DNA of 54,283 nt from Candidatus Woesearchaeota archaeon (GCA_016211165.1 JACQSU010000016.1:1-54283), one strand, 5' to 3'. Numbered from the stretch's first letter, positions 29,246-51,955 are shown. A program made the numbers and translations. Notes: a model not told the origin generated them from the letters alone.

Positions 29246-29284
29246 ACACCTGGTAGCCGACGAGCATTTATAAAGGTACTCCGG

Positions 29285-29344: not shown

Positions 29345-29366
29345 TAAAAATATAGTCATACATATC

Positions 29367-32151: not shown

Positions 32152-32152
32152 T

Positions 32153-32866: not shown

Positions 32867-32877
32867 TTGAACTCACA

Positions 32878-33606
32878 TTATTGCATCGGCTCTTGCGGCC
32901 TGGATCTGTTTACGTGCTTCGCGTTTTGCTCAAGCCATCGTTGCATCTTCTCCGTGAGACCCGAGATGTGGCTCTCGGCGCAGATGCGCTCGATCGCCTG
33001 CACAGTAATGACTTCGTTTTCTGGCTCACCAGATAGCCACACAACGCCATTCTGACCGACGAGGATATTGCACCCTGTGTGATCCTTAATCATCGAGACC
33101 ATCGAGCCATTCTTGCCTATCACGCGCGGAACCCTGTGTGGATCAACGACAAGCGTGCGACCGGGACCAAGTTTTCGCAAGCCCGGACCCTTCATCGAGA
33201 CGTCAACGAGATTCTGACTCGTGACATTGGTCACTTTCGTCATAATCACGTCACCAATGTCGAAGTACTTAGTGAGATCAGCCTTCTTTGGGATGAATTC
33301 GCTGGTCGCTTCGGCAAGCGTGAGCACAGCAGAATATGGCGAGAATGTATCAACACGCCACCCACTCATTAAAACGTCAATCACCAAACCGATGATCACG
33401 TCACCCATTCTTGGAAGATACGCTCCCGAGAGCGGCACGAGCTTGATCACCTTTCCATCCATCTGAACCAAGCCGAGGCGCGACGCTCGGATCGAATCCC
33501 CGTCCCGATACGTCCCCCATGACGGGAGAAATCCCATCCCTACCGCGAGACTCTCGCCAGGGACCACAATGTCTTTTTCTTTCACATTCAATGCATCTGT
33601 TGTCAT
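32878..33606 (-). CDS. rrp4: Exosome RNA-binding subunit Rrp4 (S1 + KH)
   Basis: N-terminal domain VVPGESLA, S1 domain (GDVIIGLVIDVLMSGWRVDT), KH motif (RVIGKNGSMVSMI). ATG 33606 is preceded by AGGTG; 33615 is a GTG. Confidence 0.9.
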   Translation of the reverse strand: MTTDALNVKEKDIVVPGESLAVGMGFLPSWGTYRDGDSIRASRLGLVQMDGKVIKLVPLSGAYLPRMGDVIIGLVIDVLMSGWRVDTFSPYSAVLTLAEATSEFIPKKADLTKYFDIGDVIMTKVTNVTSQNLVDVSMKGPGLRKLGPGRTLVVDPHRVPRVIGKNGSMVSMIKDHTGCNILVGQNGVVWLSGEPENEVITVQAIERICAESHISGLTEKMQRWLEQNAKHVNRSRPQEPMQ

Positions 33607-33633
33607 ATGTGACACCTGTTTTGATTGTTATCC

Positions 33634-34365
33634 TCACTTCTTTTTCGCTTCGCGAAGCACCTTTTCAATGCGACTCCGATCCATCTTCCTGAACGCCTTC
33701 TCCTTGATCTCGATGTACGCGGCGTCGATGCGCTCGACATTGAACTTCTTATCAAGAATCCTGACAAGCGCGTTCACGCAGATGCGAAGCCCTTCCTCGA
33801 GGGTGACATCATCGGTATATTCCTGATCAAGGATCTCGGAGATTTCTGCCTCGCCCTCACCGATCACAGTCGCTTTGTATTGAAAGAATATCCCTGTAGG
33901 ATCAGTCTCAAAGAGCTTGGCTCCAGTGTTGTCGATGCCTGCGATGATCGTCGACACGCCAAAGGGACGCAGACCAGCGCTCTGTGTGCAGATCTGCTTT
34001 AATGACGCGATGTCAGTCACAATTGAGAGCACATCGATCGGAGTGTCATACGTCACACGATGCTGGGCCGCCTTGAGCTGCGCGCGCTCGATTAAGACCC
34101 TTGCATCAGAGATGATGCCTGACGCTGTCGCGCCGATGTGATCATCGATTTTCCAGGTCTTCTCAATCGACTCTGGAACCACGAGCTTATCGACAATGCG
34201 CTTGTCTGTGACAAAGAGGACGCCATCCTTGCAGACCATCCCGATGGCTGTGCTGCCTTGACGGACTGTCTTCTTTGCATACTCAACCTGTAGCAGTCTG
34301 CCATCAGGCGAGAACATCGTGATCGCTCGATCATACCCCATCAATTGGTGGGGCATTGGCTGCAT
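33634..34365 (-). CDS. psmA: Proteasome subunit alpha
   Basis: GYDRAITMFSPDGRLLQVEYA signature. ATG 34365 is preceded by GGAGG at 8 nt; longer starts overlap the Pop5 gene. Confidence 0.93.
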   Translation of the reverse strand: MQPMPHQLMGYDRAITMFSPDGRLLQVEYAKKTVRQGSTAIGMVCKDGVLFVTDKRIVDKLVVPESIEKTWKIDDHIGATASGIISDARVLIERAQLKAAQHRVTYDTPIDVLSIVTDIASLKQICTQSAGLRPFGVSTIIAGIDNTGAKLFETDPTGIFFQYKATVIGEGEAEISEILDQEYTDDVTLEEGLRICVNALVRILDKKFNVERIDAAYIEIKEKAFRKMDRSRIEKVLREAKKK

Positions 34366-34369
34366 ATTA

Positions 34370-34750
34370 TCATCCTCCATTTGATATTCCTCCAACAAGA
34401 AGGGCTCTGCCCCTCTTGTTTTGAGCTTTAGCAATCATGCCGGACGTGCCGGTCGTGCGAATGACGACCTCACCGCCATCGATGCGGCGTGTGAGGGTAA
34501 GCGCTGCGATCGCGTCATTGACGCGTTTGCGATTGACACGAAGGATGCCTTGTTGATGGTCTTGATCCCAACGCTCCGGAACCACGATGGCACCTGCTTG
34601 CGAGGCCCCGAGCTCGCCTTTGTACTGGATCATTGAGAGCACAATCTGCTTTTGAACCTTTGATAACGAAGGGATTCTGGACTTGCTTATAATTTCAAAA
34701 CCCACGTACCTCTTCTTCTCACGTGCGCTTGGCTTTTGCTTTATTGCCAT
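34370..34750 (-). CDS. rnp2: RNase P protein component 2 (Pop5/Rpp14)
   Basis: KRYVGFEI..GILRVNRKRVNDAIAALTL pattern, positioned directly upstream of psmA-rrp4-rrp41-rrp42 as in the conserved archaeal exosome superoperon. ATG 34750; 34756 is a TTG. Confidence 0.8.
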   Translation of the reverse strand: MAIKQKPSAREKKRYVGFEIISKSRIPSLSKVQKQIVLSMIQYKGELGASQAGAIVVPERWDQDHQQGILRVNRKRVNDAIAALTLTRRIDGGEVVIRTTGTSGMIAKAQNKRGRALLVGGISNGG

Positions 34751-36609: not shown

Positions 36610-37260
36610 TTAGTCCAACCCCAACGATTTTAGTTTTCGATGAAGCGTCTCATAACGCAACCCGATCTTCTTTGCAATCTCTGCAGTCCTTCCCTTATAG
36701 ATGAGAAGCACCTGTTCAAAATACCTTCGTTCGAATTCTTGCTCTGCTACTGCAAGTGGAATATGAATATCTGGCAATTCTCTCACAATATCTTTTGAGA
36801 GTGAGGTTGAGTCGTTGTAAAACTTCGAGAGACGATCCGCATTGATGACTTGCTTGTAATTATCCAATGTCCTTGTGATGATCTCATTGACGGCTGTCTG
36901 TTTGATATACGCGGGACGCAAGAGCACTTTGCGGAACTGCTCAAGATCAATTCTGTGATGCGCAATAAGACGATGAATGGACCTGCGATCAAGACCGCTA
37001 TTCTCTGCGGCGGCAGACACATTACCAAAATGAGATCGCAACACTTTCATCACATATTGTCGCTTAAACTCATCCTTTGCTTTTTTGAACAGTAAATTTG
37101 GATCGATAACAAAATCAATAAGTGGCGAGCGTTTGATCTGATCGGTGATGTCTTTTTCTATCTCTTTAACCGTGATACCAAGATATTTGTGCATCGCTGT
37201 GTCTAAGAGCGGCTTGATCTTGTCTTGGACTACGATGTCGAGGGAGTGGTTTAGGGTCAT
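36610..37260 (-). CDS. DNA-binding protein with two tandem Fis-type (HTH_8) helix-turn-helix modules
   Basis: EFKRQYVMKVLRSHFGNVSAAAENSGLDRRSIHRLI and EFERRYFEQVLLIYKGRTAEIAKKIGLRYETLHRKLKSLGL both match the NtrC/Fis C-terminal HTH pattern. Confidence 0.7.
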   Translation of the reverse strand: MTLNHSLDIVVQDKIKPLLDTAMHKYLGITVKEIEKDITDQIKRSPLIDFVIDPNLLFKKAKDEFKRQYVMKVLRSHFGNVSAAAENSGLDRRSIHRLIAHHRIDLEQFRKVLLRPAYIKQTAVNEIITRTLDNYKQVINADRLSKFYNDSTSLSKDIVRELPDIHIPLAVAEQEFERRYFEQVLLIYKGRTAEIAKKIGLRYETLHRKLKSLGLD

Positions 37261-37387: not shown

Positions 37388-37435
37388 AAAAACGTTCAAG
37401 ATCCAGAGCAAAGCGAGGGATCATTAAACGTTTTT
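37388..37435. repeat. Family-B-like hairpin overlapping the 3' end of 37396-38232
   Basis: aaaaacgttcaagatcc-agagcaaagcgag-ggatcattaaacgttttt. The loop resembles the other family-B loops. It encodes the last ~13 residues of the membrane protein. Confidence 0.6.
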
Positions 37436-38232
37436 ACGGATTCAATCATCAACACCCGACCATAGGCATACGCAGGCAGAACAAGGAGGATCAGACCATA
37501 GGTGAGCCAGAGAGAGATACCAAGCGCAAGGGACGTCAACACGTTCGCAAGCACGATAATCACAAGATTGGCGGCATACGCCACCAGGGACGCTCGCCAA
37601 TGACTGACCAGCACCGAGATATAATCACGCCACCTATGCAATGACGGGATCGACGCGTATCCAAGAACGGTCAAATAAAAGACGACAATGACACCGATAA
37701 GACTCACATAGCCCAACAGATCAGAGGACGGCACCATAAAGCCATTGTTTAACACGGCTCCAATATTGCCAACGACCGCAAACATCACCAACAAGGAGAC
37801 ACACGCAAGGAATGTGATGAGCACGAACCTCCTAGAGAATCTCGCAATCGAGATCTTGGATTTGGCCATCCTATGCGCCACGCACCACGCAACGCCCTGT
37901 AAGAGCACCCACGCGGCAAGTACTGACACAAACATCACACCCAATGCTGCCATCAACTCGCCATACGCCTCCATAAAGCGCGTCTGAACTGAACCAGGCT
38001 GCAAATCATTCAATACCAGACTCCCAGAGATATCCTGTATCTCTTTTATTGGAGCAGCAACTGCCTGAAATGTAAGAAGCAAGACGTACGAGACAATGAG
38101 AAGGAACGCAAGATCAAAGATGACCGAGACTCCCAGCAGTTTCCAGGACGAGGAGACATGCTTCCACGAAGATGAGAACATGTTCTGAAATTGCTTTGGT
38201 TGTATTGATTGCTCTTTGTGTTGTGTTTTCAT
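37396..38232 (-). CDS. Polytopic membrane protein (about six TM helices), third gene of the giant-protein operon
   Basis: ATG 38232 lies 9 nt after the giant gene's TAG, and a GTG at 38241 abuts it. Six long hydrophobic helices. No recognised family. Confidence 0.75.
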   Translation of the reverse strand: MKTQHKEQSIQPKQFQNMFSSSWKHVSSSWKLLGVSVIFDLAFLLIVSYVLLLTFQAVAAPIKEIQDISGSLVLNDLQPGSVQTRFMEAYGELMAALGVMFVSVLAAWVLLQGVAWCVAHRMAKSKISIARFSRRFVLITFLACVSLLVMFAVVGNIGAVLNNGFMVPSSDLLGYVSLIGVIVVFYLTVLGYASIPSLHRWRDYISVLVSHWRASLVAYAANLVIIVLANVLTSLALGISLWLTYGLILLVLPAYAYGRVLMIESVKTFNDPSLCSGS

Positions 38233-38241
38233 TGTGTTCAC

Positions 38242-41200
38242 CTATTCTGGAGGGTCTCCTTCTATCGAAAGAATGATTGCCTTGCGTCCACCCTGATCAA
38301 TGAGCCGGTCAAACGCTTGAGATTCGGTGCCTTGATTCCCAGCGTACAAATCAACGTGACAGCCACCTTCTCGTGATGCTCGACGCATCGCAGCGCCCGT
38401 ATCCTCAACACGATACCATCCCGTCAGAGGATGCGGGGCTCCACCAACAGAATCAAATCGGACATAGATCCACTGGCCACGTTTAAGAATACATCCAGAA
38501 ACTCCGGTCACTAGATTTGCAGCAGCTGTTCTAAATCTCGTTGGCATGTAGCCTCCTGGCAACAGGACTCGACTCGTCGCAAGCGGCGTACTCTCCGACT
38601 CGGTCAGAGCGATGGTCTCGTAGGTATACATCTTCCCATTGCATACTCCATGTCCTTCGCAGACCACTGCCTCATAGAACCCTTTGTCTCTCACGGCGCA
38701 CGCCGCGATGCCTGATAATCGGTGGCGTTGCGTCGACCACGCCTTGCTCTTATCACAGGTAGCTTGATGATACTCGGTGATCCTTGCGTCGGGTGAGATG
38801 GTCTGGAATGTGCCTGGCGTGGGAGCAGGACGACTAAAGAATTCGGCACTGGCAGGCTCAACTTCCGGACCCACAACATCGCGTGGGTTTGAGATGCCGC
38901 GTTCTGAAACCCCGGCATCCTCACCTGCCTCGGTTTCGATCCTTCTTGCCTCTGCCTCCTCTGGACTCACGCACTCATTCTTTGCGTCCTGCATGACAAG
39001 ACAGATCTCATCGGTGTTACAAAAGATTTTCTCACCGCACAGACAACCATCACGCGTCGTGATCTCATTTGGAAGACAGTGCCCTTTGGTGCCGAGTTCA
39101 ACCTCGGTATGGCATTTGCCATCCACACATACAATACCCTGCGTATTGCGCAGGGGACCGCCGCAGTTTCGGGGATCCTTTCGATCAGATGCTCTAAGGA
39201 CTTCCTCGCGTTTGGGGAAACAATAGCACCCAGACACTGCACTGCGCAGATTCTGATTCTCCCTGCACTCGCCAGCGACCTTGCCTTCCTCGCCTCGATA
39301 ATCCTTTGCACACACCACCTGGAAGTCGATTCGCTCACGTTGCGTCTTACCTTGGACCAAGGCGACTGTTGGACTTGGATCAAAATTATTGCCCTTGCCA
39401 GACTCAATATCATGAATCTGGAATGTCGCAAACCACGTCTCAGGAGTTCTGGACGGATTATTCGGATCGCATAGGGATGTCAGGACGCCAAGATTCTCTG
39501 TCGGACCAACCTGGATGTCAACCTGGGGATTGGGATCAGCAAAGAGGCTTTCGGAGAGCTGGATGCTAAGACCAAGGCTATTGACAATCTGCCTACCTTC
39601 AACCCGGCACACATTCCCTGTTGCACGCGGATCGCCCTGCAGTGACGGACGAAGGACGATGCAAGACCTGGCCTTGGCATCAACACGCAAGATAAACTCC
39701 TCACTGGTCGTCGTCTCCTTACGTTGCGGATCAAGCGTCACGGTCACAAACGAGGCGAGCCGTTCGGGAATCACCTGGTAATTGACCTGTTTCTCCTTTG
39801 CACCCTGACTAAACATCTGCTGATTAAGCACAGTCGGCACTTCAACGACATACCGCTTCTCTCCATTGGTTGAAAGAAGCGCGGATGTATCCGGGGACAC
39901 GACACGCGACAGATCAAGGCCAGAGCCAGCGCCTTGAGGTTCCAAAAGCTCGCCCATATTGCTAAATATTATACCACGATTGCGATTCTCGATCTTGAAA
40001 AGCAGATACTTGCTATGTTCACACACGCCAGTTGAGCAGGCCGCTGTCTCTGGCACACGCTGGATGATGGGCACGGAGAATCGAACGCGATCACCAAGAC
40101 GGAATGTCCCTGCAAATGGATCAGCATACTCCGGCGTCGGCACGCCAGAGAATCGGGCAAAGTACTCGCTAAAGAAATCCACTCCGCAACGAAAGGAATT
40201 TGCCAGGATATCAAAGGCGCAGAAGGCAGGAGGTTCGCCGCCAATCTGCTCAATTGCACACTCCTTTTTGCCCTGCTGGATCTTCCCATCCTTATCACGA
40301 TAACTATACTCAATCTCTGCTTGATCATAACGGTACGGCGATTGGATGTTCTGGAAAATCTCACCCTTCTCTGATAGGCTCTCAAATTGGCGCAATTGAC
40401 CAGATGAAACCACTTGCTTTTTCTCGCCAAGCTTGTCACAGTCACACGTTGAATCCTTATAGCCATTCCTTGGATCGCAGAATGGACCTTGCGAACACTT
40501 GAGATTGACGGTGTATGTCACATCGGATCCTGCGAAGATATCTGCGCCAATGTGATAATTGAATGTTGTAAGCCCTTGATTTGCAGAATCAAATGTGAGG
40601 AAGCGACGCTCGCAGGGCAAGAGGTACGGTTGGGAGTCAACAGGAATGTTTGCGATCTCAGTTGTTGCAAGGGCGTCGACGTTGAGGTCCCACGTACCTG
40701 TAAACGCAAAGAGGCAGATACTATTGACAAGCTTTTGCTCGGTAAATGCTGCCTTGTATGCAGGAGAGTTTCCATAACGACCTTGCAAGGATTGCTGGAC
40801 ACTCGTACCTGCTCGTGTGAGCGATGCGCCCACATTGCCAATGCCGCCGAATATTGAGCTGTCGGGTCGGCCTGCAGCGAAGTCGTAGCGCTTGATGTAA
40901 CACTTGAGGAACAAGTGGATGGCATCGCATACGTACCGCGAGAGCACTGCATTACACACGCCAGGAGCGCCATTGCCAGTAGCAAGAATCTTTGCAAAAC
41001 AATTCTTCACCGCAGTAAGCTGGCCCTTCCAGAGTTTGAGATGTGTGGTAATTCCTGGAAGGCATGCGCATTTGACACTTGTTGCAAGATCCTCTGCAGG
41101 ATTCACAATAAAGTCACGATCGCCAACACCAATTCGGTTCTTGATCTCATCATACACCTGCTTTGCCGTCGATGGGTTGCAGTTGAGGATGTTTGGCACA

Positions 41201-44200
41201 TACCTTTTTGTGACCGGGTCTTCCTGTGCGCTGCACAGCTCCCCAAGCCACTCCCGCGCACGATAGACAGGAGGCGCACCAGGAGTCTCGGACTTAAAGA
41301 AACGCTCAAGACCCATCTGCCCATCAGGGATGAATGCCATGTCTTGGATCACTTGTGTCTCAGCTTCGATGCGCGCACGCTCGGTCGGATCGGTCGGAAG
41401 CAGTTCTGGCAGGTCTGCAAGACGGGCACGTTCGATCAGATATCCCCTGCGAATTGTCAACTCCTGATCAGGACCTGGCGGCAGGACACGGATATAGACT
41501 TGACGATTCTTGATAACCGGCGAGAGCTTTCCTTCTGATGGATCAGCGCCGCCGGTGAGTACTTGATTATCCATCCGCGAATCAAATTCACGCTTCTCTT
41601 CAACATTGCGCGACACGCGAATAGACTCGCCAATAGTCACACCCAACTCTTCTTCACGCGACTGGATCTTCTTGTTACGCTCATCAAAGAGCTCATCAAG
41701 CGACTTGCGCTGCTCGGTGCTCAAATCGCCATACATAAAGGGGGTTGTAATAAGATCGCCTTTGAATGCGCCACCTTGTGAGCAGAAACCCGCGTTCTGA
41801 TTACGCACACTTGGCTTTGGAGAACATCCCGGAACTGTACGAATCAGTTCAGAGTCCTGCGTCTGACGTGCAGCAAGGCACAGGGACTGTCGAAGCTCGT
41901 AGTTCTCTTCAGTGATTGAGCAGACGCTCTCCCATTCCTTGTTGTACTCGTATGCGCAACAATTCGGATTGTGCGGGTGCAAACTTGCGCAATTCACTTT
42001 GTCAGTCTGCGAGAAGCCTGCGGAATCTTTTATTGCAGCTTGAGGAAACCCAGCATCCTGTTCTGGCTTGTCTGCTTTGTGCTCCTTAAACTGCTCATAC
42101 AGATCGCCAAGCGAGAGTTTACCAGACGTTTCACTTTTCTTGAACTCTGAGAACACGATATTCTTTGATGCACAATCAGACCCAATAGGAATGGGCTCGC
42201 GCAAGCTTTCTACCCTGCGCTCCTTGATTGGACGAGCCTGGGCATCCCGGATGTATCGCTGGAGGCTCGGGGCACTTGGACAGAAGACGCGATCACAGAA
42301 CCATTTGAGCTGACGAAAGAGATCCTGACGCTCCGTGATCTTTTTTTGACACGCCACGCACTGATCATGACTCACTTGGAACTGGTCACCTGTATACACC
42401 GCATCGCACATACCTGATTGCGCGATCGCTGGATCAAAACCGCCACCACCAGCAGCACCAAGAACACCTGCACCTTCACAACTTGCCTGCTCTGCAACCT
42501 CTTGGAAGAAGGTGACATAAAAACCTAGAAGGCAGGTGTAGAACACGACATTAAAGACAGTCTGCACTGGCTTGAGAATGGCATCAATTGCATCAACAAG
42601 CTTTCCAAAGAGCTCCACACTCCCCTTAAGAAATGCATTTGGCAAGACATCAGGATTGATTCTGCGATCAATGCCGATCTCTGCCGTGATACATTGCTTA
42701 AAGATACCACGCTCGATGCGCACTTCGCTTTCGATTCCAGTCACTGCCTGTTGGCGGTCTGTCGTTGGAAGGACCTTGTCGTACTGGATTTCCAGAAGAA
42801 GCGGAACTTTGTAGCACCCAAATCCAGGAACAAGGCACTCCCCCTTGCGATGATTTGAGATATTCTGCTCCTGCGGGAATGCCGGTGGATTGATTCGCAG
42901 TTCAAGATACGCCTTGTTAAGTTTCTTCTGATCAAGACGAATGCTTGGCGTAACATCCGAGTCGAACTTTTTCTCTTCTTCTCTTGAGAGCGCTCGACGA
43001 TGTACACTTACGCGAACACCTTCTGCTTGGCCTTGATCTTGGTATTTGAGGTCAAGGTTGAGCCCCACAACACCAAAACCATCCAAGATCAGTTTTGGAA
43101 TGAGCGTATCTGGACTGGGTTTACCCACACTCACTTGCCAGCCACTGCCAAAGCCGCAGATTGCGTATGTCACAGGAACTGGCCCGACTTCGACAGTGAG
43201 ACCCACTTGATCAACTGCTTGGATCTTGATATTATTCTCAGAGCCAATGCCTGTTGTTCCTGCACCACCTGTTGTCAGAGCGTCTGTTTCCGAGATATCA
43301 AATGTGAGATTGCGTAAAAGACGTATGTCTGCTTCAAATGAACCATCTTCACTTGTGGTGACAAAAGTCTGCGGCTTATTCATATCATTGACAAAGATCA
43401 GCACATTGGCTTTCTCACTGATCTTGCCACGCACTTTCACATCCTGCGTATAGCTTGGCGAGATGCCATCAAGATTATGCTCCAAAATAACCGGAGGCGT
43501 GCGATCACTAAGGATACTACGCTCGATTGTCGCCTTGTTTCCTGCCTTATCTGTGACAAGGATCGTAAAGGAGTTCTGTCCTTCCTGCAAGGCAATGGGC
43601 TGGACAAATGATGCATCAGTTTCTATACGAAAGAGCGCAGTCTTACATGAAAATTGTGGCTTTTGGACTGCGGGAGACAACGCAATAGGACTTGGACTTG
43701 AAGGCGTCGCGATGTCCACACTATCACTTTGCGGGCCAGGATTGCACGCGCGATCAATCGCCTGGACCCGGTACTTGTAGGTCTTGTCTGGTTCGAGATT
43801 GTTGTCAATAAATGTTGACGCTTGACTCACACCGATGAGCGCATCATCACGAAAGATGCCGTACTCGAGAAGGTCTTGTTCTTCACCTGCCGTCCATAAG
43901 AGTGTAGCAGAGGCTGGAGTTATTGACGTGATCGCAAGACCCTTGACACGCTCCGGAGGAATCGCATCACCAGAAATCTTGCCAAAGATCTCGATGATCG
44001 CGGGCTCACTGACGCGGCCTGCAAGAGTCACTTGTCCTGTTGTGCTAATCGCGGATGTGTTCGCAAGATCAAGAATCGGAGGTTGAGAATCGACAAGGAT
44101 AATAGTCTCTGCTGTGACAATATTGTGGCCCTTGTCCTCAGCTTCTATCCGAATCGTGTTCCTCGGACGCGGCAGGATTACGCCACGAAATGTCACGGTG

Positions 44201-44730
44201 CCGGACGGATTAGACGATGGTTGAGCTATTCTGTTAAGCGAGTTCTCCACAAAGACACGAACCTGCGCACGGGGCTCTGTGGTCACGATGATATCCGCAC
44301 TCTGGGTTCGCGTGTATGTCGGAGCAGAGAGATTAATTGTTGGAGGAATCGTGTCCGGTCCTGCTGTGAAGCGCTCACCAGACTTTGTCACACAGGACCC
44401 TTGCGCATCGCATGCCATTGCTTCAAAGGAGTAATTCTTGCCAGCCTCGGTCACCAGATCAAGACGATGGCTCTTTGCGAATTGGTCTTGGGTGATATGT
44501 TGCGAGAGTTCGACTTCTCCATAACGGATCGTCGCATTGGCTGGAGTGTCTGTTAGGATGTCAATACCTGTGCTGGTTTCCTTAAACTCGGCGATCGTGA
44601 GATTGTCAATGCGCAAGGCATACGCGATGTCAATAGGGAGGAGAACGATCAACATCATAAGGACTATGGAGACCGCCTGCTGCGTTGTTCCCTGAAAAAA
44701 CGAGGCGTAGCCGAGTTTTTTTTGCATCAT
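38242..44730 (-). CDS. Giant (2,162 aa) cysteine-rich surface protein: N-terminal anchor, Ig-like/FN3 array, unassigned Cys-rich core, C-terminal MltA/3D-like domain
   Basis: Single uninterrupted ORF. Hydrophobic N-terminus (AVSIVLMMLIVLLPIDIAYA). FN3 at aa ~257-343 (LLWTAG..YGIFRD..YKYRVQAIDRACN). Many CxxC/CxC pairs. C-terminal GWYRVEDTGAA..CHVDLYAGN..GRKAIILSI. Confidence 0.9.
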   Translation of the reverse strand: MMQKKLGYASFFQGTTQQAVSIVLMMLIVLLPIDIAYALRIDNLTIAEFKETSTGIDILTDTPANATIRYGEVELSQHITQDQFAKSHRLDLVTEAGKNYSFEAMACDAQGSCVTKSGERFTAGPDTIPPTINLSAPTYTRTQSADIIVTTEPRAQVRVFVENSLNRIAQPSSNPSGTVTFRGVILPRPRNTIRIEAEDKGHNIVTAETIILVDSQPPILDLANTSAISTTGQVTLAGRVSEPAIIEIFGKISGDAIPPERVKGLAITSITPASATLLWTAGEEQDLLEYGIFRDDALIGVSQASTFIDNNLEPDKTYKYRVQAIDRACNPGPQSDSVDIATPSSPSPIALSPAVQKPQFSCKTALFRIETDASFVQPIALQEGQNSFTILVTDKAGNKATIERSILSDRTPPVILEHNLDGISPSYTQDVKVRGKISEKANVLIFVNDMNKPQTFVTTSEDGSFEADIRLLRNLTFDISETDALTTGGAGTTGIGSENNIKIQAVDQVGLTVEVGPVPVTYAICGFGSGWQVSVGKPSPDTLIPKLILDGFGVVGLNLDLKYQDQGQAEGVRVSVHRRALSREEEKKFDSDVTPSIRLDQKKLNKAYLELRINPPAFPQEQNISNHRKGECLVPGFGCYKVPLLLEIQYDKVLPTTDRQQAVTGIESEVRIERGIFKQCITAEIGIDRRINPDVLPNAFLKGSVELFGKLVDAIDAILKPVQTVFNVVFYTCLLGFYVTFFQEVAEQASCEGAGVLGAAGGGGFDPAIAQSGMCDAVYTGDQFQVSHDQCVACQKKITERQDLFRQLKWFCDRVFCPSAPSLQRYIRDAQARPIKERRVESLREPIPIGSDCASKNIVFSEFKKSETSGKLSLGDLYEQFKEHKADKPEQDAGFPQAAIKDSAGFSQTDKVNCASLHPHNPNCCAYEYNKEWESVCSITEENYELRQSLCLAARQTQDSELIRTVPGCSPKPSVRNQNAGFCSQGGAFKGDLITTPFMYGDLSTEQRKSLDELFDERNKKIQSREEELGVTIGESIRVSRNVEEKREFDSRMDNQVLTGGADPSEGKLSPVIKNRQVYIRVLPPGPDQELTIRRGYLIERARLADLPELLPTDPTERARIEAETQVIQDMAFIPDGQMGLERFFKSETPGAPPVYRAREWLGELCSAQEDPVTKRYVPNILNCNPSTAKQVYDEIKNRIGVGDRDFIVNPAEDLATSVKCACLPGITTHLKLWKGQLTAVKNCFAKILATGNGAPGVCNAVLSRYVCDAIHLFLKCYIKRYDFAAGRPDSSIFGGIGNVGASLTRAGTSVQQSLQGRYGNSPAYKAAFTEQKLVNSICLFAFTGTWDLNVDALATTEIANIPVDSQPYLLPCERRFLTFDSANQGLTTFNYHIGADIFAGSDVTYTVNLKCSQGPFCDPRNGYKDSTCDCDKLGEKKQVVSSGQLRQFESLSEKGEIFQNIQSPYRYDQAEIEYSYRDKDGKIQQGKKECAIEQIGGEPPAFCAFDILANSFRCGVDFFSEYFARFSGVPTPEYADPFAGTFRLGDRVRFSVPIIQRVPETAACSTGVCEHSKYLLFKIENRNRGIIFSNMGELLEPQGAGSGLDLSRVVSPDTSALLSTNGEKRYVVEVPTVLNQQMFSQGAKEKQVNYQVIPERLASFVTVTLDPQRKETTTSEEFILRVDAKARSCIVLRPSLQGDPRATGNVCRVEGRQIVNSLGLSIQLSESLFADPNPQVDIQVGPTENLGVLTSLCDPNNPSRTPETWFATFQIHDIESGKGNNFDPSPTVALVQGKTQRERIDFQVVCAKDYRGEEGKVAGECRENQNLRSAVSGCYCFPKREEVLRASDRKDPRNCGGPLRNTQGIVCVDGKCHTEVELGTKGHCLPNEITTRDGCLCGEKIFCNTDEICLVMQDAKNECVSPEEAEARRIETEAGEDAGVSERGISNPRDVVGPEVEPASAEFFSRPAPTPGTFQTISPDARITEYHQATCDKSKAWSTQRHRLSGIAACAVRDKGFYEAVVCEGHGVCNGKMYTYETIALTESESTPLATSRVLLPGGYMPTRFRTAAANLVTGVSGCILKRGQWIYVRFDSVGGAPHPLTGWYRVEDTGAAMRRASREGGCHVDLYAGNQGTESQAFDRLIDQGGRKAIILSIEGDPPE

Positions 44731-46751
44731 CCCAACTCCGGGCGCACGGCCTCTTTATACTGTTCGCTTTGCAAGAAACGCATCATCCTGACACGATCAT
44801 CAGATGTGAGGGGAATCGGACGATATTCAATGACATTGAACATGATTGATTGCGCTCTTGCGATCTCGTCCGCGCTGATGGTGAGATTGCGCGTGTGGTA
44901 GCCGCCGATGATGACTTCACCCCGAGTGAGCACGATGTCGACGTCATAGTTGGCAGTATTGTCGATGAGCTGAATGAAACTGTCGTTTGATGGCAATGCG
45001 AGCTTCTCATCCAAGCCTCCACTCGCACGCACATTGATGATGGCCACCTCATCACCCAGGGATTCCGGCATGTCGCGGAATTCGCCTCCGACATCGGCAA
45101 AGTAGATCCGTTTCTGGACGCTTGCCCGCAAGGTCTTGAGATGCTGGAGATCAAGGACGGTGATATCATCATGGATACGCGTCTCATTTGGCAGATAGTC
45201 GCCGTGAGTGGCAAGGATCGTTGGATTATCACAGGAGGAAGGGATTCTTGTGGTGAGAGCATAGCGACCATCGATTGCTTGCGTGTGACCCAAAAGACAT
45301 CGACGACCAGCGCAACGGTAGGTCATGTTAATATCCGCAAGCTCGCTTGGGAATCCATCTGCGTCAATACCCACTGCACGGAATTCGTGGAAGGAATCAC
45401 CTAGCGTGGTGCAGAACTCCTCACGTGTAGGAACCTCTTGGAATGTTCGAACCATCACATCACGGGTTGGTTTGTTGCTTGCGATCTGCACAGGGAACGC
45501 AAATGAGAAGATATAACCTCTGCCGCCAAAGGCAGTCGGATCAAGAAGCGAGACTTTGATTGGATAGGCTATGTCGTATGCGAAATGATACGCATTCATG
45601 CACAGGAATGGAATGAAACGTGCAGGACCATCGACATTCTGTGAGCGGAGGATGCCACCAGAGCTCGGATTTGCTCGGAGATACATCCCAAACAAAGGAT
45701 GGTACTGGAATGCCACGCGGACATCGCCGGGCGCTTGACCAACATCAATTTGCGAATGGAAATATTCATACGCATCAGCAGGAGGATCCCTTGGGAAGCT
45801 CCTGCTTTTCCCAATATCCTCAAGACCATCATTGAGTTCTTGCTCAAGAGCTTCATTTGCAATTCGCAGACGCTCGTACGCTCCTTGCGGAGCGCTAAAT
45901 GGCGTGAATTTGGTGTTTGCCACGCGAATGTTTTGCAAGTTGTGGGTCAGCGTTGACTCAATCTGTGATCTGATTTCATCTTGAGTCCACTCTTTTTGCT
46001 CGCAGTCAAATTCGAGGTTTGTAAACGGGATTTCTGGGTTTGCACTTAAGAGGTCAAGGGTGAGATTCTCAAAAAACTCTCTATCGTTCTCAAAGCGCAT
46101 CAATCGGCCACCAAGATCATGCAGTTGCTTAAGACGCACTTGGTGGGCAACTTGGAATGAGTCAATCATAACGGTGCGCCCTTCTGCAATGCTGATCTCA
46201 AGAGGATACAGCGTTTCGATGATCACATCGTCGGAGGCAATGATGGCACGCGTCGAAAGATTCGCAAGCGGGCGGACCTTGATATTTGGAAGATCTGTGA
46301 AATTATGGATGCAGTCTGGAAGATCATTTTTTACATATGTTGCTAGGGAGCGCTCCATACCTGACAAGGTTGGGATGCGACTCTCGCCATTATGATGCCA
46401 ATACGGAATCTTGCGAATACCCTCCTGGTCTAAGAGGAGACTTGCTGTTATATCCGTGTCAATCCACGCAGGAATCTCAACCCAACCGCCAGTCGAGCCC
46501 ATCTCTTCAATCGCTCTTTGGGATGATTGACGCATACACTCCTCGATAAATCTCGCCACAGGCTCTGCTTCCGGAGGATAGATGATGCCCGGACGGATCT
46601 GACTCCACGATGAGAGATAACTCTGGATAAAGAAGATCGCAACAAGCACGATCAAACCCAAAATCACAAAACCAGTCAACTGACCTCTTGAAAAAGAGGG
46701 GTACATCCCTCTTTTGAACTCCCCCTGAAGATTTCCAAATAAAGCACCCAT
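44727..46751 (-). CDS. Membrane-anchored 674-aa protein, first gene of the giant-protein operon
   Basis: ATG 46751 is preceded by GAGGGGG at 4 nt, with a TATA ~38 nt upstream. N-terminal leader ..SFSRGQLTGFVILGLIVLVAIFF. The stop overlaps the giant gene start (ATGATGA). Alternative start M16 (46706). Confidence 0.85.
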   Translation of the reverse strand: MGALFGNLQGEFKRGMYPSFSRGQLTGFVILGLIVLVAIFFIQSYLSSWSQIRPGIIYPPEAEPVARFIEECMRQSSQRAIEEMGSTGGWVEIPAWIDTDITASLLLDQEGIRKIPYWHHNGESRIPTLSGMERSLATYVKNDLPDCIHNFTDLPNIKVRPLANLSTRAIIASDDVIIETLYPLEISIAEGRTVMIDSFQVAHQVRLKQLHDLGGRLMRFENDREFFENLTLDLLSANPEIPFTNLEFDCEQKEWTQDEIRSQIESTLTHNLQNIRVANTKFTPFSAPQGAYERLRIANEALEQELNDGLEDIGKSRSFPRDPPADAYEYFHSQIDVGQAPGDVRVAFQYHPLFGMYLRANPSSGGILRSQNVDGPARFIPFLCMNAYHFAYDIAYPIKVSLLDPTAFGGRGYIFSFAFPVQIASNKPTRDVMVRTFQEVPTREEFCTTLGDSFHEFRAVGIDADGFPSELADINMTYRCAGRRCLLGHTQAIDGRYALTTRIPSSCDNPTILATHGDYLPNETRIHDDITVLDLQHLKTLRASVQKRIYFADVGGEFRDMPESLGDEVAIINVRASGGLDEKLALPSNDSFIQLIDNTANYDVDIVLTRGEVIIGGYHTRNLTISADEIARAQSIMFNVIEYRPIPLTSDDRVRMMRFLQSEQYKEAVRPELG
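46691..46725 (+). repeat. Family-A palindromic repeat inside the 5' end of 44727-46751
   Basis: aaaaagaggggtacatccctcttttgaactccccc. The alternative ATG 46706 sits in the hairpin loop. Confidence 0.75.
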
Positions 46752-46788
46752 ACTACCCCCTCAAACGTAAGGCAAACAACCCGAAAAA

Positions 46789-46801
46789 GCGTATATAAAG
46801 G
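46789..46801 (-). promoter_or_regulatory. Candidate TATA box of the giant-protein operon
   Basis: The minus strand reads CCTTTATATACGC, ~38 nt upstream of ATG 46751. Confidence 0.4.
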
Positions 46802-46862: not shown

Positions 46863-46977
46863 CTTATAGCAAGTTGGGTTAGAAGTTAGGAAAGGAACTT
46901 TTGCGTTCGACTGGCACGAAGTGCATCTCGACTCAACTTGGACGCAAAAGTTCATATAATTCGTCAACTGTCTATAG
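46863..46977 (-). mobile_element. Family-C MITE-like element, long form (115 bp)
   Basis: Reverse complement of 48630-48738 with few differences. Terminal arms cttatagcaagttg / caactgtctatag. Internal 11-bp inverted repeat aacttttgcgt / acgcaaaagtt. Confidence 0.8.
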
Positions 46978-47003: not shown

Positions 47004-47603
47004 CTATCTCGCAGAATCTGACTGTCGTTCAACGTCGTTCTTCTTTGAGATTGCCATTGAGTTTGGAGAAAGGTTATACGCATTCACAATTTCATCAGCA
47101 AGCGCGTCGACAAGGGATTTCTTGGTGTTAAAGCACTTCGCATAGCTTCCTTGGACAAAGTAGCGCAGGCAGATGTCGATGCGTCGTTGTGGTGAGCATT
47201 CGACTGCTTTTGGGTAGCGTGCTCCGCCGTATTCGATGGTGAGGATTTCTTCTCGTGGTGCGCCGTGCTCGACTGCTTTGACAAAGACTTCGATGGGGTT
47301 TTTCTTGGTTCGTCCTTCAACAAGTTTCAAGGCTTCGAACACGGTGTTATAGACATGAGTTGCCTTGCCGGTGATGTGGCCTGATGATCGCCAGTGTTTT
47401 TTTGATCTGTGGCCTGGCACCATCAGTTTGTTCATGAGGCGCTCGACGATGAATGTCTTTGATTTGTGGAATTTGTTTCCTGCGTATCGCGCTCCGGTTT
47501 TGGGAACAAAGCGTGCTTGGGTAGTGATATAATTGACAAGTCCGGGGTCTTCCACAGTGATGCCTGTTGTGCTCCATGTGTTGAATGCGAGGACTTCGGT
47601 CAT
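47004..47603 (-). CDS. rps7: 30S ribosomal protein uS7
   Basis: Full-length match to the archaeal S7 pattern (..RFVPKTGARYAGNKFHKSK..IVERLMNKLM..NPIEVFVKAVEHGAPREE..). Confidence 0.95.
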   Translation of the reverse strand: MTEVLAFNTWSTTGITVEDPGLVNYITTQARFVPKTGARYAGNKFHKSKTFIVERLMNKLMVPGHRSKKHWRSSGHITGKATHVYNTVFEALKLVEGRTKKNPIEVFVKAVEHGAPREEILTIEYGGARYPKAVECSPQRRIDICLRYFVQGSYAKCFNTKKSLVDALADEIVNAYNLSPNSMAISKKNDVERQSDSAR

Positions 47604-47608
47604 TGTGC

Positions 47609-48046
47609 TTACCTGCGTGCTTTTTCGATCTTTCCCTTAAGGAGCGCGTCGAGGGATTGGTCATTGACTTTGACAAGCTTCCATCGGACTCCGGGGATGT
47701 CTCCCATTGCGCGTCCCATTTTTCCGCCGATGCACTCGACAAGTACTTCGTCGTGTTCATCAACAAGTTTTGATGCGCCGTCCCCCGGGCAGAATGCCGT
47801 GATTTGGCGGCCGTTCTTGATAAGTTGGACCCTGATGCATTTTCGCATGGCTGAATTTGGTTGTTTGGCTTCGAGCTGGATCTTTTCTAAGACGATGCCG
47901 CGCGCTTGGGATGACCCTTCAAGCGGGTCGACGCGTTGTCTGATCTTGAGTGCTTGCTTAATGAATCTGCGGTGCATCCAGCGCGATCGCTTGCGTCGTT
48001 TCTGGAGCGATTTGGCTGCGTTAAGACCGGTGGTTTTGCTACCCAT
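47609..48046 (-). CDS. rps12: 30S ribosomal protein uS12
   Basis: ..[47 protein letters not shown].. ATG 48046 lies 24 nt downstream of a TATA box. The 48139 start is an extension through the promoter. Confidence 0.95.
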
Positions 48047-48066
48047 TGTGTCGAGGTAGATATGAC

Positions 48067-48084
48067 CCCTTTTTAAATATAGCG
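48067..48084 (-). promoter_or_regulatory. TATA box / promoter of rps12-rps7 (leaderless-type spacing)
   Basis: The minus strand reads CTATATTTAAAA (48071-48082); ATG 48046 follows after 24 nt. Confidence 0.55.
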
Positions 48085-48777
48085 ATGGAAAAAGTCGGCC
48101 CTGTCGGCCTCTCGGTCGCAACATTCGTGGTTTGCGCAAGGGGGATCATGTTGTGCGTACTGTGCGAAGGCCTTGTCCATCGTGTCCGAATTGTTCTCGT
48201 GGGAATAATGACATGTGTTCGACAGGGAAGTTTACTGAGATCGGCATTGGCGGAGTGCATGGCATCCCAGGAGGGCATTGGTGAGTGGTGCTGGTCCGAT
48301 TGGGATCTTGCAGGCAATGTTTCTTGTTGAGAAGGGATTGGAGGTGTATGTGGCGGCAAGAGGACTCCCACCCAATCGCAAGTCAAAGATTGTTAGTACC
48401 ATTGGCGCGCAGTATGTGAGTGTCGCTACTACTCCTCTGAAAGAGATCCCAAATGGATTCGGCTTGATGGATCTTATCATCGAGGCATCTGATGTTTGGG
48501 ACAGTGAATGCGAATCGCGTTGATTATGAGAATGGCGTGGCGAGTCTTGGGCGTTTTATGGAGTGCTGGCCACAAGAAGTGCAGGCGCTTTTCACACGGC
48601 GTTTGTCCATTGATGACTTTGAGACGGCACTTATAGGCAGTTGACGAATTATATGAACTTTTGCGTCCAAGTTGAGTCGAGATGCACTTCGTGACAGCCC
48701 GACGCAAAAGTTCCAACATTGACTCAACTTGCTATAAGCCTTCTCCTAATGACATCAAGACGGTGATCGAGTTCTGA
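48085..48777 (+). pseudogene. Decayed Zn-dependent (MDR-family, glucose/threonine dehydrogenase-like) dehydrogenase gene with frameshifts, deletions and a MITE insertion
   Basis: Fragments lie in three frames: [39 protein letters not shown], then VSGAGPIGILQAMFLVEKGLEVYV..LIIEAS, then ..FTRRLSIDDFETA[MITE]PSPNDIKTVIEF*. The N-terminal ~60 aa are missing. Confidence 0.65.
48630..48738 (+). mobile_element. Family-C MITE-like element, long form (109 bp), inserted in the dehydrogenase pseudogene
   Basis: Inverted copy of 46863-46977. Deleting exactly 48630-48738 joins codon gca (48627-48629) to cct (48739-48741) in frame through to the TGA at 48775-48777. Confidence 0.85.
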
Positions 48778-48952
48778 CTCAAAACGCGTATGGATCAAAA
48801 GTCGTTGGTTGCTCCAGCATCGCCGGTGTGCAAGGCGTGAGAGACTCTGGTTGTGATGCGGCTGCGTGCCTTGCGATCTTTTGGTATGGGACTGAGATCG
48901 CAAAGAAAGCATTCAGCGACGCAACGTGCGATCTTATCACACTGGCTAGGCG

Positions 48953-49906
48953 TCACGTATTCACCCCTCTGATCTTTAGCATCCCCAATTTCTCCTGTGC
49001 GCTGCGCGCCCCCTTCTCTGCAAGCACGTTTCGTAACTCTTGTGCAATCCGTGTAAAGATCGCTGGTCCTTCTTGCATGTATGCAGTTCCTACCTGCACG
49101 CCAGTAGCTCCTGCAAGCACATAATCATACACATCCCGTCCTGTGTACACCCCGCCAACACCGAGGATGGGAATTCTATTCCCAAGAAGCTGATAAAAGG
49201 CGTGCACTTGGCCAAGGGCAATGGGCTTGATATATGCCCCACCTAGTCCTCCACGGCCGTTATTTGGATGAATCACGGTTTCATCCGTTAATGGGTCAAC
49301 GTGCACAGTATGTCCGATGCTATTGATAAGCGACAAATACGCAAGCTCGTGTTTCATCAGCATGTCTGCGGCTTCTTTAAGAAAGACTGGATCGCAGTAC
49401 GCAGGCAATTTCACGCCGATGGGTGCTTGCGTCTTAGTATTGATCGTCTTTAAAATTCGATCGCTTGCTTCCATGTCATATGCTATTTGGGGTTTGCCAG
49501 GGATGTTGGGGCATGACAAGTTGACTTCGATAAGATCTGCGACAGTGCCAATTTCTGCAGCCATGTTGTAGTAGTCTTCTTCTTTGAGCCCTGCGACGCT
49601 TGCGATAAAGACGCAGTCGGGGAATTCTTTTTTGAGTTTGGAAATCACTTCCATATACCGACCAACGCCAAGGTTCTCAAGTCCATTGCTATTAACAGAT
49701 CCATATTCCAAATCCGCATATTTCGGGTGGGGGTTTCCATCGCGGGGCTCGATTGTCATGGACTTTGTTACCACAGCCCCTGAGGATGACTGGCAAAGCG
49801 CTCGCAGATGATCCTCCATCGTGCATAGGGGTCCTGACGCGTTCATGATAAGAGAGGGTAGTTTCTTTCCTCCGATGGCGCAGCTTATATCGATTGCATG
49901 TGTCAT
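48953..49906 (-). CDS. pyrD: Dihydroorotate dehydrogenase, class 1 (Cys active site)
   Basis: NASGP.., IEVNLSCPNIPGKP (catalytic Cys), GGLGGAYIKPIAL, GVGGVYTGRDV. Confidence 0.9.
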   Translation of the reverse strand: MTHAIDISCAIGGKKLPSLIMNASGPLCTMEDHLRALCQSSSGAVVTKSMTIEPRDGNPHPKYADLEYGSVNSNGLENLGVGRYMEVISKLKKEFPDCVFIASVAGLKEEDYYNMAAEIGTVADLIEVNLSCPNIPGKPQIAYDMEASDRILKTINTKTQAPIGVKLPAYCDPVFLKEAADMLMKHELAYLSLINSIGHTVHVDPLTDETVIHPNNGRGGLGGAYIKPIALGQVHAFYQLLGNRIPILGVGGVYTGRDVYDYVLAGATGVQVGTAYMQEGPAIFTRIAQELRNVLAEKGARSAQEKLGMLKIRGVNT

Positions 49907-49925
49907 TTCTTCCTCCCAATGTCGT

Positions 49926-49977
49926 TTATAGTTGGTTCACTCACTAAAGTTCAATTATATAATGAACTGACTCTAAG
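49926..49977 (-). mobile_element. Family-C MITE-like element (52 bp) between pyrC and pyrD, preceded by a family-B half-site (gtcgtttat)
   Basis: ttatagttggttcactcactaaagttcaattatataatgaactgactctaag has the same architecture and orientation as 36173-36224. It overlaps the pyrC stop codon. Confidence 0.7.
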
Positions 49978-51040
49978 TTCGCCGGAGGCGAACATTAAGC
50001 GATATTCCCTGGTATGGATTGAGTGGGTACTCATTCCACAAGTCCGTTGATGGCACTGCTGCTCGTTGGTGGAATGGCAGTCGGAATATGTCAGCGATGT
50101 TTTGGTATGTGACGCGATGCACAAGAGCAGGTGATGCGCCAATCGAGCGCAACATGGAGACAAACACAGGATAGTATGGTAGTCCAGGAATGCCGGAGAT
50201 GTGGGGTGGATTCATTTTTTCATAAAGAGCGTGGGGCGCGTGGTCGGTCTCGATCCAGTCGATCTTACCCTCAAGCAGGGCTCGGAGCATCTCGGCTCGC
50301 ATCGGCTCGGGTCGTAGAGGGGGGTTCATTTTGTATAATATACCTTGTGCTCCAGCTAAGCTTGCATCCGACAAGACGCAGTGATGTGGTGTTACTCCCA
50401 TCGCAACCTTGATGCGTTTCTTTGCTTCGTTTGCTATGCGCACTGCCTCGGGCGTCGAGATATGCCCGATGTGCAGTGTTCCTTTGAATCCGATTTCCTC
50501 AACGAGGTTGATCTGGTCCTTGACTGATTCAACTTCCGCGTGCGGTGGTCGCGCATGAGCATGCGAGAGAGGCACAGCCGGATCCCACACATCCGAGAAG
50601 TACTCTTCTTTCTCGCAGTGCGTCATCAACACGCCATTGTATCCTGCATCCAGCAATGTTTGATATACGATCTTCTGCGAAGCCAAGTCTACCACGCTGC
50701 AATCTCCAACGCTTTTGCCGCAGAATAACTTAAGTCCTGCCACAAAGACATCCGAGTCCTTAGTAGGTCTATGATCAGCCCAGACATTGACTGCTTCGCG
50801 GATCTGGTCGGGATTAGCAGTCAAGAGAAGATGCATCCCGTATCGGACCGGTGACTTGCATTGCCGTGCAATCCCTAATCTCTCCTCGGTCAAACGCCTA
50901 TCTGTCACAGGCTTTGTCAGGTTGGGGATGTCAAAGATCGCGCTAAATCCAGCGCGTTCAGCGACAGAAAGCGCGTGTGATATTGTCTCCTTATACGATT
51001 GGTCCTTGTCCCTGCAGTGCACATGGGGGTCGATATACAT
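49973..51040 (-). CDS. pyrC: Dihydroorotase (amidohydrolase superfamily)
   Basis: Metal ligands in canonical order: DPHVHCRD, GLKLFCGKS (Lys), MTHCE, HIGHIST, ETDHAPH. ATG 51040; 51043 is a TTG. Confidence 0.82.
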   Translation of the reverse strand: MYIDPHVHCRDKDQSYKETISHALSVAERAGFSAIFDIPNLTKPVTDRRLTEERLGIARQCKSPVRYGMHLLLTANPDQIREAVNVWADHRPTKDSDVFVAGLKLFCGKSVGDCSVVDLASQKIVYQTLLDAGYNGVLMTHCEKEEYFSDVWDPAVPLSHAHARPPHAEVESVKDQINLVEEIGFKGTLHIGHISTPEAVRIANEAKKRIKVAMGVTPHHCVLSDASLAGAQGILYKMNPPLRPEPMRAEMLRALLEGKIDWIETDHAPHALYEKMNPPHISGIPGLPYYPVFVSMLRSIGASPALVHRVTYQNIADIFRLPFHQRAAVPSTDLWNEYPLNPYQGISLNVRLRRT

Positions 51041-51102
51041 CAAAAAGGTGGGTGTTCCACCATTCCTCTTATGTGTTGTGCTGTCACTGCAAGGGGGGAA
51101 AG

Positions 51103-51135
51103 GAAAAATCGTTTATTGTTATAAGTTGACTATAT
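51103..51135. repeat. Family-B half-site fused to a degenerate family-C end
   Basis: gaaaaatcgtttattgttataagttgactatat. Confidence 0.45.
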
Positions 51136-51140
51136 TTTTA

Positions 51141-51204
51141 GGGGGTTAAAAAGGGGGCGTAGTCTCCTTTTCAGGGAGTTTCAAAGAGGGGTTCACCCCT
51201 CTTT
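51141..51204 (-). repeat. Two family-A repeats (reverse orientation) at and over the nusA 3' end
   Basis: gggggttaaaaagggggcgtagtctcctttt and agggagtttcaaagaggggttcacccctcttt. The second encodes the last NusA residues (EPKEG*). Confidence 0.75.
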
Positions 51205-51923: not shown

Positions 51924-51955
51924 GCGTTGAGGAGCCCCGAGTCGCTTTTAAAGCT

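Follow-up and report, generated by a model that had tools for sequence, protein, structure and literature searches.

On a contig assigned to a Candidatus Woesearchaeota archaeon, a gene for a cysteine-rich protein of more than two thousand residues lies tightly packed between two smaller genes, and we asked what such a cassette might do for the cell that encodes it. The window analysed here, meaning the whole stretch of 54,283 nucleotides (nt; GCA_016211165.1 JACQSU010000016.1:1-54283), had earlier been read by a model from its sequence alone. This original prediction described the three genes as an operon for an extracellular attachment or envelope-breaching apparatus, with a polymorphic-toxin-like arrangement as the alternative. 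Having compared the cassette with its relatives, we lean, with modest confidence in the reading taken as a whole, towards a scaffold, held at the cell surface, by which a murein hydrolase is presented to bacterial walls, with the cassette as one chromosomal representative of a surface system that is conserved in Woesearchaeota/Nanoarchaeota (DPANN).

The three genes follow one another on the minus strand, at the positions first claimed for them. The partner gene (44727..46751) encodes 674 amino acids (aa); the giant gene (38242..44730) encodes 2,162 aa (237 kDa, isoelectric point (pI) 5.3, 64 cysteines); and the gene for a polytopic membrane protein (37396..38241) encodes 281 aa if read from the GTG at 38241, or 278 aa from the ATG at 38232. 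The partner's TGA (44729-44727) shares four nt, ATGA (44730-44727), with the giant's ATG (44730-44728). This overlap of stop and start had been recognised, but its sequence was misquoted as ATGATGA (44725-44731), and the local string is in fact GATGATGC. At the second junction, the giant's TAG (38244-38242) is followed directly by the GTG, or nine nt on by the ATG, as the predicted spacing of 0-9 nt allowed. Upstream of the partner gene we read a TATA-box-like TTTATATA (46792..46799, minus strand, 41-48 nt 5' of the partner ATG), a perfect archaeal-type box preceded by CGAAAC, which resembles a B recognition element (BRE); it presumably serves as promoter for the cassette. Also read from the sequence is a Shine-Dalgarno-like GAGGGGG (46756..46762, minus strand), 4 nt 5' of the partner ATG at 46751. 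Box and ribosome-binding site are where they had been placed, but the latter is not confined to the first gene, since a GGAG (44736..44739, minus strand) lies 5 nt 5' of the giant ATG, within the 3' end of the partner gene, and an AGGTGA (38238..38243, minus strand) overlaps the giant TAG, 5 nt 5' of the ATG at 38232. With overlapping or abutting codons, one putative upstream promoter and a gene order that is kept among relatives, the cassette has the organisation of a translationally coupled operon, as far as sequence can tell.

Giant open reading frames in metagenome-assembled genomes are a known risk, and beyond that general caution we found nothing in favour of an assembly artefact or a chimera. 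An independent assembly (locus L001) encodes a 2,149-aa giant that is collinear with ours over aa 20-2160 at 54% identity, and dozens of further relatives of 1,300-3,000 aa have the same architecture and the same neighbours, which leaves the artefact with a negligible probability. NCBI lists the same protein, at 100% identity, under the name 'fibronectin type III domain-containing protein' from a Candidatus Woesearchaeota archaeon (P0001, 2161 aa).

If the three proteins belong to one system, then their genes should be found together elsewhere. Loci were collected by look-ups of homologues and by scanning GTDB with a single genome for each species (55 loci), and were then analysed with profile hidden Markov models for all three proteins. 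The partner gene lies directly 5' of the giant gene, on the same strand, in every one of the ~50 non-redundant loci having upstream sequence, and a homologue of the six-transmembrane (TM) protein was found 3' of the giant in most loci. This near-invariant linkage bears out the expectation that the three families would co-occur in DPANN genomes. At 50 non-redundant partner/giant junctions, a 4-nt overlap is the mode (22/50), an 8-nt overlap occurs in 6/50, and 35/50 fall within -20 to +17 nt. The 55 GTDB-species loci are nearly all Woesearchaeota/Nanoarchaeota, and record titles overwhelmingly name these two groups, with one Aenigmatarchaeota and one Nanobdellota. Some labels among the collected records deserve caution: many loci are titled 'uncultured Methanosarcinales archaeon' (binchicken co-assemblies), and these titles look like placeholders or mislabels; L010 and L001 are one contig, titled Methanosarcinales under L010, while a source names the L001 partner protein (P0018) as Nanoarchaeota; and three short contigs labelled bacterial look mis-binned. 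One protein, P0027, contains a garbled, frameshift-like internal stretch.

In many relatives the cassette is larger. A four-gene paralogous module directly upstream extends it to a seven-gene cluster (L003, L005, L007, L013, L014, L017, L039, L040, L042 and L058-L060), and its products are a paralogue of the partner (~700 aa), a protein rich in immunoglobulin (Ig)-like domains (~1,000-1,150 aa), a third protein of ~450-730 aa and one of ~250-290 aa that is distantly related to the TM protein. No protein of this module matches a Pfam family, and in the window, L001 and L004 the module does not adjoin the cassette. We considered the ~1,050-aa upstream protein as a paralogue of the giant's conserved core (described below) and rejected this, as all that hhalign finds in common are Ig repeats and a single weak motif of 60 residues.

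The giant itself begins with the N-terminal hydrophobic anchor or signal that had been proposed. A hydrophobic segment covers aa 14-42, and the region is predicted to be a signal peptide or signal anchor (44611..44730, minus strand; aa ~1-40, h-region AVSIVLMMLIVLLPIDIAYA, hydropathy 2.42); a similar segment is found in 39/44 family members. An Ig-like array follows (aa ~41-690), with an FN3-like module (43696..43974, minus strand; aa 253-345) inside it. Ig-like modules had been called here and are matched weakly, and 'one clear FN3' overstated the case: the FN3 region of NCBIfam NF041611 (CbhB) matches aa 253-345 at E=9e-8, and Pfam fn3 stays below threshold over aa 262-330 (E=0.0035, 17.9 bits against a cut-off of 25). 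There is also a weak Big_13/Glucodextran_B match at aa 368-408, PHROG tail proteins match the Ig/FN3 array, and the AlphaFold2 (AF2) model has beta-sandwiches at aa 500-690. In a word-indexed protein search with the giant, the matches outside DPANN are confined to this Ig/FN3 region.

Beyond it lies the part that defines the family. Residues 500-1600 (39931..43233, minus strand) align with all members at 25-65% identity and contain ~30 invariant cysteines (alignments A1 and A3) and the motifs CDRxFCPSAP, RYG, AFTG, RRF, CDC and RYD. The cysteine richness noted at the outset is real, with 56 of the giant's cysteines lying from C733 onward. Searching 1.84 billion cluster representatives with a profile of this core (aa 500-1600, A3), we obtained 676 matching representatives at E<=1e-3, of which 425 reach E<=1e-30, and almost every match spans the full ~1,050-position core; a word-indexed search had retrieved about a dozen. 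The core has no family in Pfam, NCBIfam or PHROGs and gave nothing credible in sequence-profile searches of the PDB. The earlier statement that it could not be assigned to a family is therefore right for these collections, and its apparent orphan status is not, given the 676 representatives. Judged by these profile matches, the core is a large, widespread, unnamed and uncharacterised DPANN family.

Where do these proteins reside? The cysteines offer an answer. The giant has an internal hydrophobic helix (42496..42567, minus strand; aa 722-745) with the invariant C733, and this helix contains exactly one cysteine in 44/44 aligned full-length giants. The number of cysteines downstream of it is always odd, and helix plus downstream region are even in 44/44. 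Counts are also even in the N-terminal region of 41/44 giants, in the C-terminal tails (46/49 tails from the GTDB scan and 19/19 from long-tailed representatives), and in 44/45 partner ectodomains, 43 of which have exactly eight cysteines. Even parity is to be expected where all cysteines are disulfide-paired, which implies oxidative folding outside the cell. Giants and partners are probably extracellular with every cysteine paired, amounting to ~32 disulfides in the window giant. The extracellular location put forward originally is thus backed by the parity of both proteins and by the signal-like N-termini of the giants.

The same parity bears on the internal hydrophobic stretch. Its presence at aa 722-745 was correctly noted, with a Kyte-Doolittle (KD) hydropathy of 1.70 over aa 724-742 in the window giant, but it does not behave as a conserved anchor: across the family the median hydropathy is 1.48, and only 20/44 members reach 1.6 or more. 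A TM anchor at this point, which would leave the cysteine-rich part in the cytoplasm, is ruled out by the parity together with the weak hydrophobicity in most members. Because the parity requires C733 to be paired, the stretch is probably a buried, disulfide-linked helix and not a TM segment. The AF2 model of the core, a poor one, places it within a helix of 60 residues.

The partner is anchored by an N-terminal TM segment (aa ~22-49), which is followed by an ectodomain of alpha/beta type and, at the C-terminus, by Ig-like sandwiches in tandem; eight cysteines are conserved; homologues begin aligning near M16, and the NCBI product is 642 aa long. Its AF2 model has a predicted local distance difference test score (pLDDT) of 80. 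Foldseek searches against PDB and BFVD match the Ig-like half only, with low TM-scores, to streptococcal/lactobacillar pilins and to Sulfolobus SlaB (E=2.9e-4 for the latter), and return no fold match for the alpha/beta domain. This domain has the invariant residues E221, E228, D326, E329, H389, D393 and D404, and residues 384-397 form a nearly invariant motif, C-x-N-A-Y-H-F-T-Y-D-x-x-Y-P; together these could be an active or metal site. From the model we read the partner as an anchored stalk. The membrane protein has about six TM helices and a pI of 9.4 and is weakly conserved. We considered it as a DsbB/VKOR disulfide oxidoreductase for the giant and rejected this, as it has no conserved cysteine. 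Neither protein has a family in Pfam, NCBIfam or PHROG, and a PDB sequence-profile search with the partner gave nothing credible; the description of both as free of recognisable motifs holds to that extent, although the partner is no orphan but a member of a large DPANN family.

Evidence that the giant may act on bacterial walls comes from the ends of its relatives. Beyond the core the tails diverge; they range in length from ~150 to 1,400 aa, and of 49 tails compared by BLAST many are singletons. In the next-closest relative (L012), a Glucosaminidase domain above the Pfam cut-off occupies the same terminal position as the 3D-like module of the window giant, and the L043 tail has a Peptidase_M15_4 above cut-off. 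Among 19 long-tailed representatives, SLT occurs in two, and Amidase_2, Peptidase_M74, VanY and a GDSL lipase in one each. Domain positions were confirmed to be C-terminal to the core in P0096 (SLT 1985-2031 and VanY 2260-2381), P0132 (Amidase_2 2237-2364) and P0171 (M74 2253-2443). At least six families of murein hydrolase above cut-off thus sit on this scaffold, or seven kinds if the 3D-like end is counted. Because the organisms that carry it are murein-free, these tails suggest bacterial cell walls as the target, in an attack on bacteria or an attachment to them. Relatives thus give strong backing to the proposal of a large conserved carrier that ends in a lytic module, since they have bona fide peptidoglycan hydrolases at the same end.

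The tails are varied in other ways too. P0096 combines two different murein hydrolase modules, SLT and VanY, in a single tail, and P0153 has SLT-like plus GDSL-lipase-like segments. Repeated cysteine-rich modules starting CGNG-x2-D-x-GE-x-CD occur in the tails of P0039, P0041, P0043, P0045, P0047 and P0089, and a repeated ~150-aa module ending NW(V/I)GLC(V/T)(K/R)P is found in P0038, P0040 and P0042; neither module matches Pfam.

Variable tails on a conserved body, with several enzyme families and many singletons, are also what a polymorphic toxin-immunity system would display, in which the giant would be a delivery protein with a variable toxin tail and the membrane protein its immunity factor. 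In such a system the immunity gene would be expected to change with the toxin. The downstream TM protein does not co-vary with the tail: loci whose tails are unrelated still encode homologues of it, and for that reason its gene is not an immunity gene. Scans of Pfam, NCBIfam and PHROG found no Rhs, PT-HINT, pre-toxin or known toxin or delivery domains, orphan tail cassettes are absent downstream within the window, and a murein-free archaeon needs no protection from murein hydrolases. The toxin alternative, and with it the immunity-like role suggested for the small membrane protein, does not survive this comparison well, and we regard it as very improbable.

The window giant's own tail is a less certain case. 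Its first part (38971..39930, minus strand; aa 1601-1920) is conserved within a subfamily and common to L001, L011 and L012 by tail BLAST; L001 aligns with the tail over its full length, L011 and L012 only over its first ~320 residues. The last ~190 residues are, among 178 collected proteins, common to L001 only. Within them lies the putative murein-lytic module of 3D/MltA type (38320..38529, minus strand; aa ~2068-2137), a sub-threshold resemblance. The L001 tail matches Pfam 3D at E=0.002 and 18.7 bits, below the cut-off of 23.8. A tblastn search of phage records with the C-terminal domain gave no match. We aligned a profile of the window and L001 ends (A5) with E. coli MltA using hhalign; the alignment, of low probability, pairs EDTG with the LDVGG of MltA and HVDLY-AG with HFDIY-QG, and sets D2110 and D2127 against MltA D297 and the catalytic D308 (mature numbering). 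The roles of these and other MltA residues have been described (PMC4499186). The aligned aspartates and the L001 match are what stands of the predicted MltA/3D resemblance, for which the Pfam threshold is not reached; the resemblance is a lead and not membership. A lytic role for this tail is nevertheless a credible proposal because relatives carry murein hydrolases on the same scaffold.

Collectively, these observations are consistent with a model in which the three genes would be transcribed from a single promoter with coupled translation. The giant would be exported via its N-terminal signal by the Sec pathway, fold outside the cell with its ~32 disulfides, and be retained at the cell surface by the Ig-stalk partner, with its N-terminal anchor, together with the six-TM protein. 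The Ig/FN3 array and the ~1,050-aa cysteine-rich core would form a conserved scaffold giving reach and binding, and the tail would be an exchangeable working end, which in this archaeon is a 3D/MltA-like module predicted to cut peptidoglycan glycan strands at bacterial contact. Such cutting might lead to attachment, to local breaching of the wall or to scavenging of muropeptides. Gene order and overlaps, membership of the family, the extracellular disulfide signature and the varied hydrolase tails of relatives are observed; that the three proteins form a complex, that the window tail is active and that its target is bacterial are parts of the model that we infer.

Several results count against this model. 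The window C-terminus does not match Pfam 3D (PF06725) even at E<=10, and its search against PDB sequence profiles gave nothing credible; the A5 profile picks the MltA 3D region (282-340) at a hhalign probability of 6%; and N2072, placed at the MltA D261 position by eye and just outside the aligned block, would put an asparagine where the first signature aspartate should be. A recognisable hydrolase is found in a minority of tails (2-4/49 GTDB tails and 4/19 long-tailed representatives), and given that minority the core's primary role may be different from wall lysis. The AF2 model of the core, made from a 10-sequence alignment, is poor (pLDDT 58.8), and Foldseek returns generic beta-sandwiches for it. 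Lastly, ~32 disulfides would call for a source of oxidising power.

Could the giant instead be released? A secreted enzyme that digests free wall debris for nutrients, with no cell-cell contact, would be in keeping with a signal peptide that has a possible cleavage site between AYA and L, with the lack of a conserved second anchor and with the hydrolase modules of relatives, and DPANN archaea are inferred to scavenge cell components (PMC9723730). The invariant linkage of its gene, often with overlapping frames, to those of the membrane-anchored partner and the polytopic protein speaks instead for a surface-held assembly, and a 1,600-aa non-catalytic scaffold is too much for a free enzyme. We think scavenging by a released protein quite unlikely.

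A self-envelope is somewhat less improbable, though still, in our judgement, unlikely. The giant and its anchored partner would then build the cell's own layer, a surface-layer (S-layer)-like complex following the logic of SlaA/SlaB, and the hydrolases would be occasional add-ons. The cassette is near-universal in the sampled Woesearchaeota and lies between housekeeping superoperons, most giants are without a recognisable hydrolase, the Ig-like half of the partner resembles SlaB and pilins in fold, and the core is kept whatever the tail. The giant is not sequon-rich, however, with 7 N-X-S/T against 10.9 expected, where proposed DPANN S-layer proteins have many sequons; ~30 invariant cysteines are atypical of S-layer proteins; and the joining to one scaffold of the 3D-like end and of at least six different families of murein hydrolase above cut-off is hard to explain as decoration of a self-envelope in murein-free organisms.

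The preferred reading, a scaffold presenting a murein hydrolase, can be taken further, and here we are more tentative, judging the stronger version possible but somewhat short of probable. In it the cassette would encode a previously undescribed contact apparatus, of seven genes in many relatives, with the giant as a disulfide-stapled scaffold on an anchored partner and a membrane base, which opens bacterial walls with interchangeable murein hydrolases: lytic transglycosylases, glucosaminidase, amidase and endo-/carboxypeptidases. If this were true, many Woesearchaeota would parasitise bacteria or prey on them, and would not be the partners of methanogens, and the type of tail would be a genetic marker predicting hosts.

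The cassette resides in the core chromosome. Upstream lies a housekeeping cluster with rpoA1/A2, NusA, S12 and S7 (47004-54256), and downstream a second one with proteasome alpha and the exosome genes Rrp4, Rrp41 and Rrp42 (31378-34434). In many archaea EF-2 and EF-1alpha come after S7, and for this reason the cassette may occupy the site of, or split, a classical housekeeping gene order. No second copy of the cassette genes was detectable within the 54-kb window. Upstream, a dihydroorotate dehydrogenase gene (48953-49906) is wedged between NusA and S12. A perfect inverted repeat of 12 bp, GAACTTTTGCGT ... ACGCAAAAGTTC, surrounds a smaller hairpin (46895-46953, minus strand) in the spacer that separates the partner gene from rpS7, whose stop is at 47004. 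As RNA it has a folding energy of -23.1 kcal/mol (z = -3.68 against shuffles) and matches no Rfam family; transcripts could be terminated or processed here after S7, or the element could itself be a small structured RNA.

On the other side, a T-rich 135-nt spacer separates the membrane-protein gene from a separate gene for a 216-aa protein (36610-37260, minus strand) with two bacterial Fis/NtrC-type HTH_8 stretches (E=9e-12), a type of regulator that is odd for an archaeon. Genes at this position in relatives have no homology to it. Further along, a 376-aa protein (28229-29359, minus strand) combines an adenylate/guanylate cyclase catalytic domain (E=1e-20) with DUF5939; class III cyclases are uncommon among archaea.

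A conserved, chromosomally fixed cassette gives a concrete, testable molecular handle on whether Woesearchaeota associate with bacteria or with archaea; the literature compared here names no host for a woesearchaeon. The core is of interest in its own right, as a ~1,050-aa, disulfide-rich unit with no structural relative found that is present in 676 clusters, widely distributed yet uncharacterised.

How does the cassette compare with known systems? Our literature search for a named system returned general remarks on 'large lytic transglycosylases' only. Castelle et al. 2021 (PMC8204110) described large extracellular lytic-transglycosylase proteins specific to Woese/Pacearchaeota and suggested attachment to bacterial walls, and Vigneron et al. 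2022 (PMC9723730) noted a 'large lytic murein transglycosylase' in Woesearchaeota. A 2025 paper entitled 'Archaea produce peptidoglycan hydrolases that kill bacteria' (PMC12352652) finds peptidoglycan hydrolases to be prominent in Nanoarchaeota. The proteins of Castelle and Vigneron resemble the family studied here in being limited to the Woesearchaeota group, in reaching ~3,000 aa, in their predicted extracellular location and in having a murein-degrading domain (SLT, in relatives of the window giant); for both, binding or degradation of bacterial walls has been proposed. They differ in that the window giant has a 3D-like end and not SLT. Judged by lineage, size and SLT domain, the window giant probably belongs to fam00969 of Castelle 2021.

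Likeness to other systems is partial. The window module resembles MltA/3D transglycosylases (PF06725; E. coli MltA, B. subtilis YuiC) in its EDTG...HVDLY-x-G, to be set beside the LDVGG...HFDIY-x-G of MltA; unlike them, it ends a 2,000-aa archaeal protein, has extra cysteines, appears to have Asn for the first signature Asp and scores below threshold. With polymorphic toxins (Rhs, CdiA, MafB) the family shares a large conserved N-terminal body and exchangeable C-terminal enzymatic modules, but these are murein hydrolases and one GDSL lipase, with no nuclease, deaminase or other toxin domain found, and the cassette is without a co-varying immunity gene or known delivery or pre-toxin domains. 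In SlaA/SlaB of the Sulfolobales, too, a large outer protein is encoded beside an anchored protein with Ig-like sandwiches; in the cassette, the anchor is N-terminal and not C-terminal, the gene order is reversed, and the giant is cysteine-rich and not sequon-rich. Sequence homology is absent, and the giant matches no known S-layer protein in sequence or, in the PDB, in fold, apart from generic Ig sandwiches. Very large surface proteins tied to cell-wall degradation are also found in ultrasmall bacteria of predatory or episymbiotic habit (Omnitrophota and the candidate phyla radiation, CPR), though these belong to a different domain of life, and we saw no sequence relationship. The general idea of large wall-lytic Woesearchaeota proteins is already published, and the kind is known but uncharacterised. 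The papers compared here make no mention of a cysteine-rich core, of partner and TM genes, of disulfide parity or of hydrolase swapping. What is new here is the core and its boundaries, the invariant cassette of partner, giant and TM protein with its paralogous extension, the topology read from disulfide parity, and the swapping of tails.

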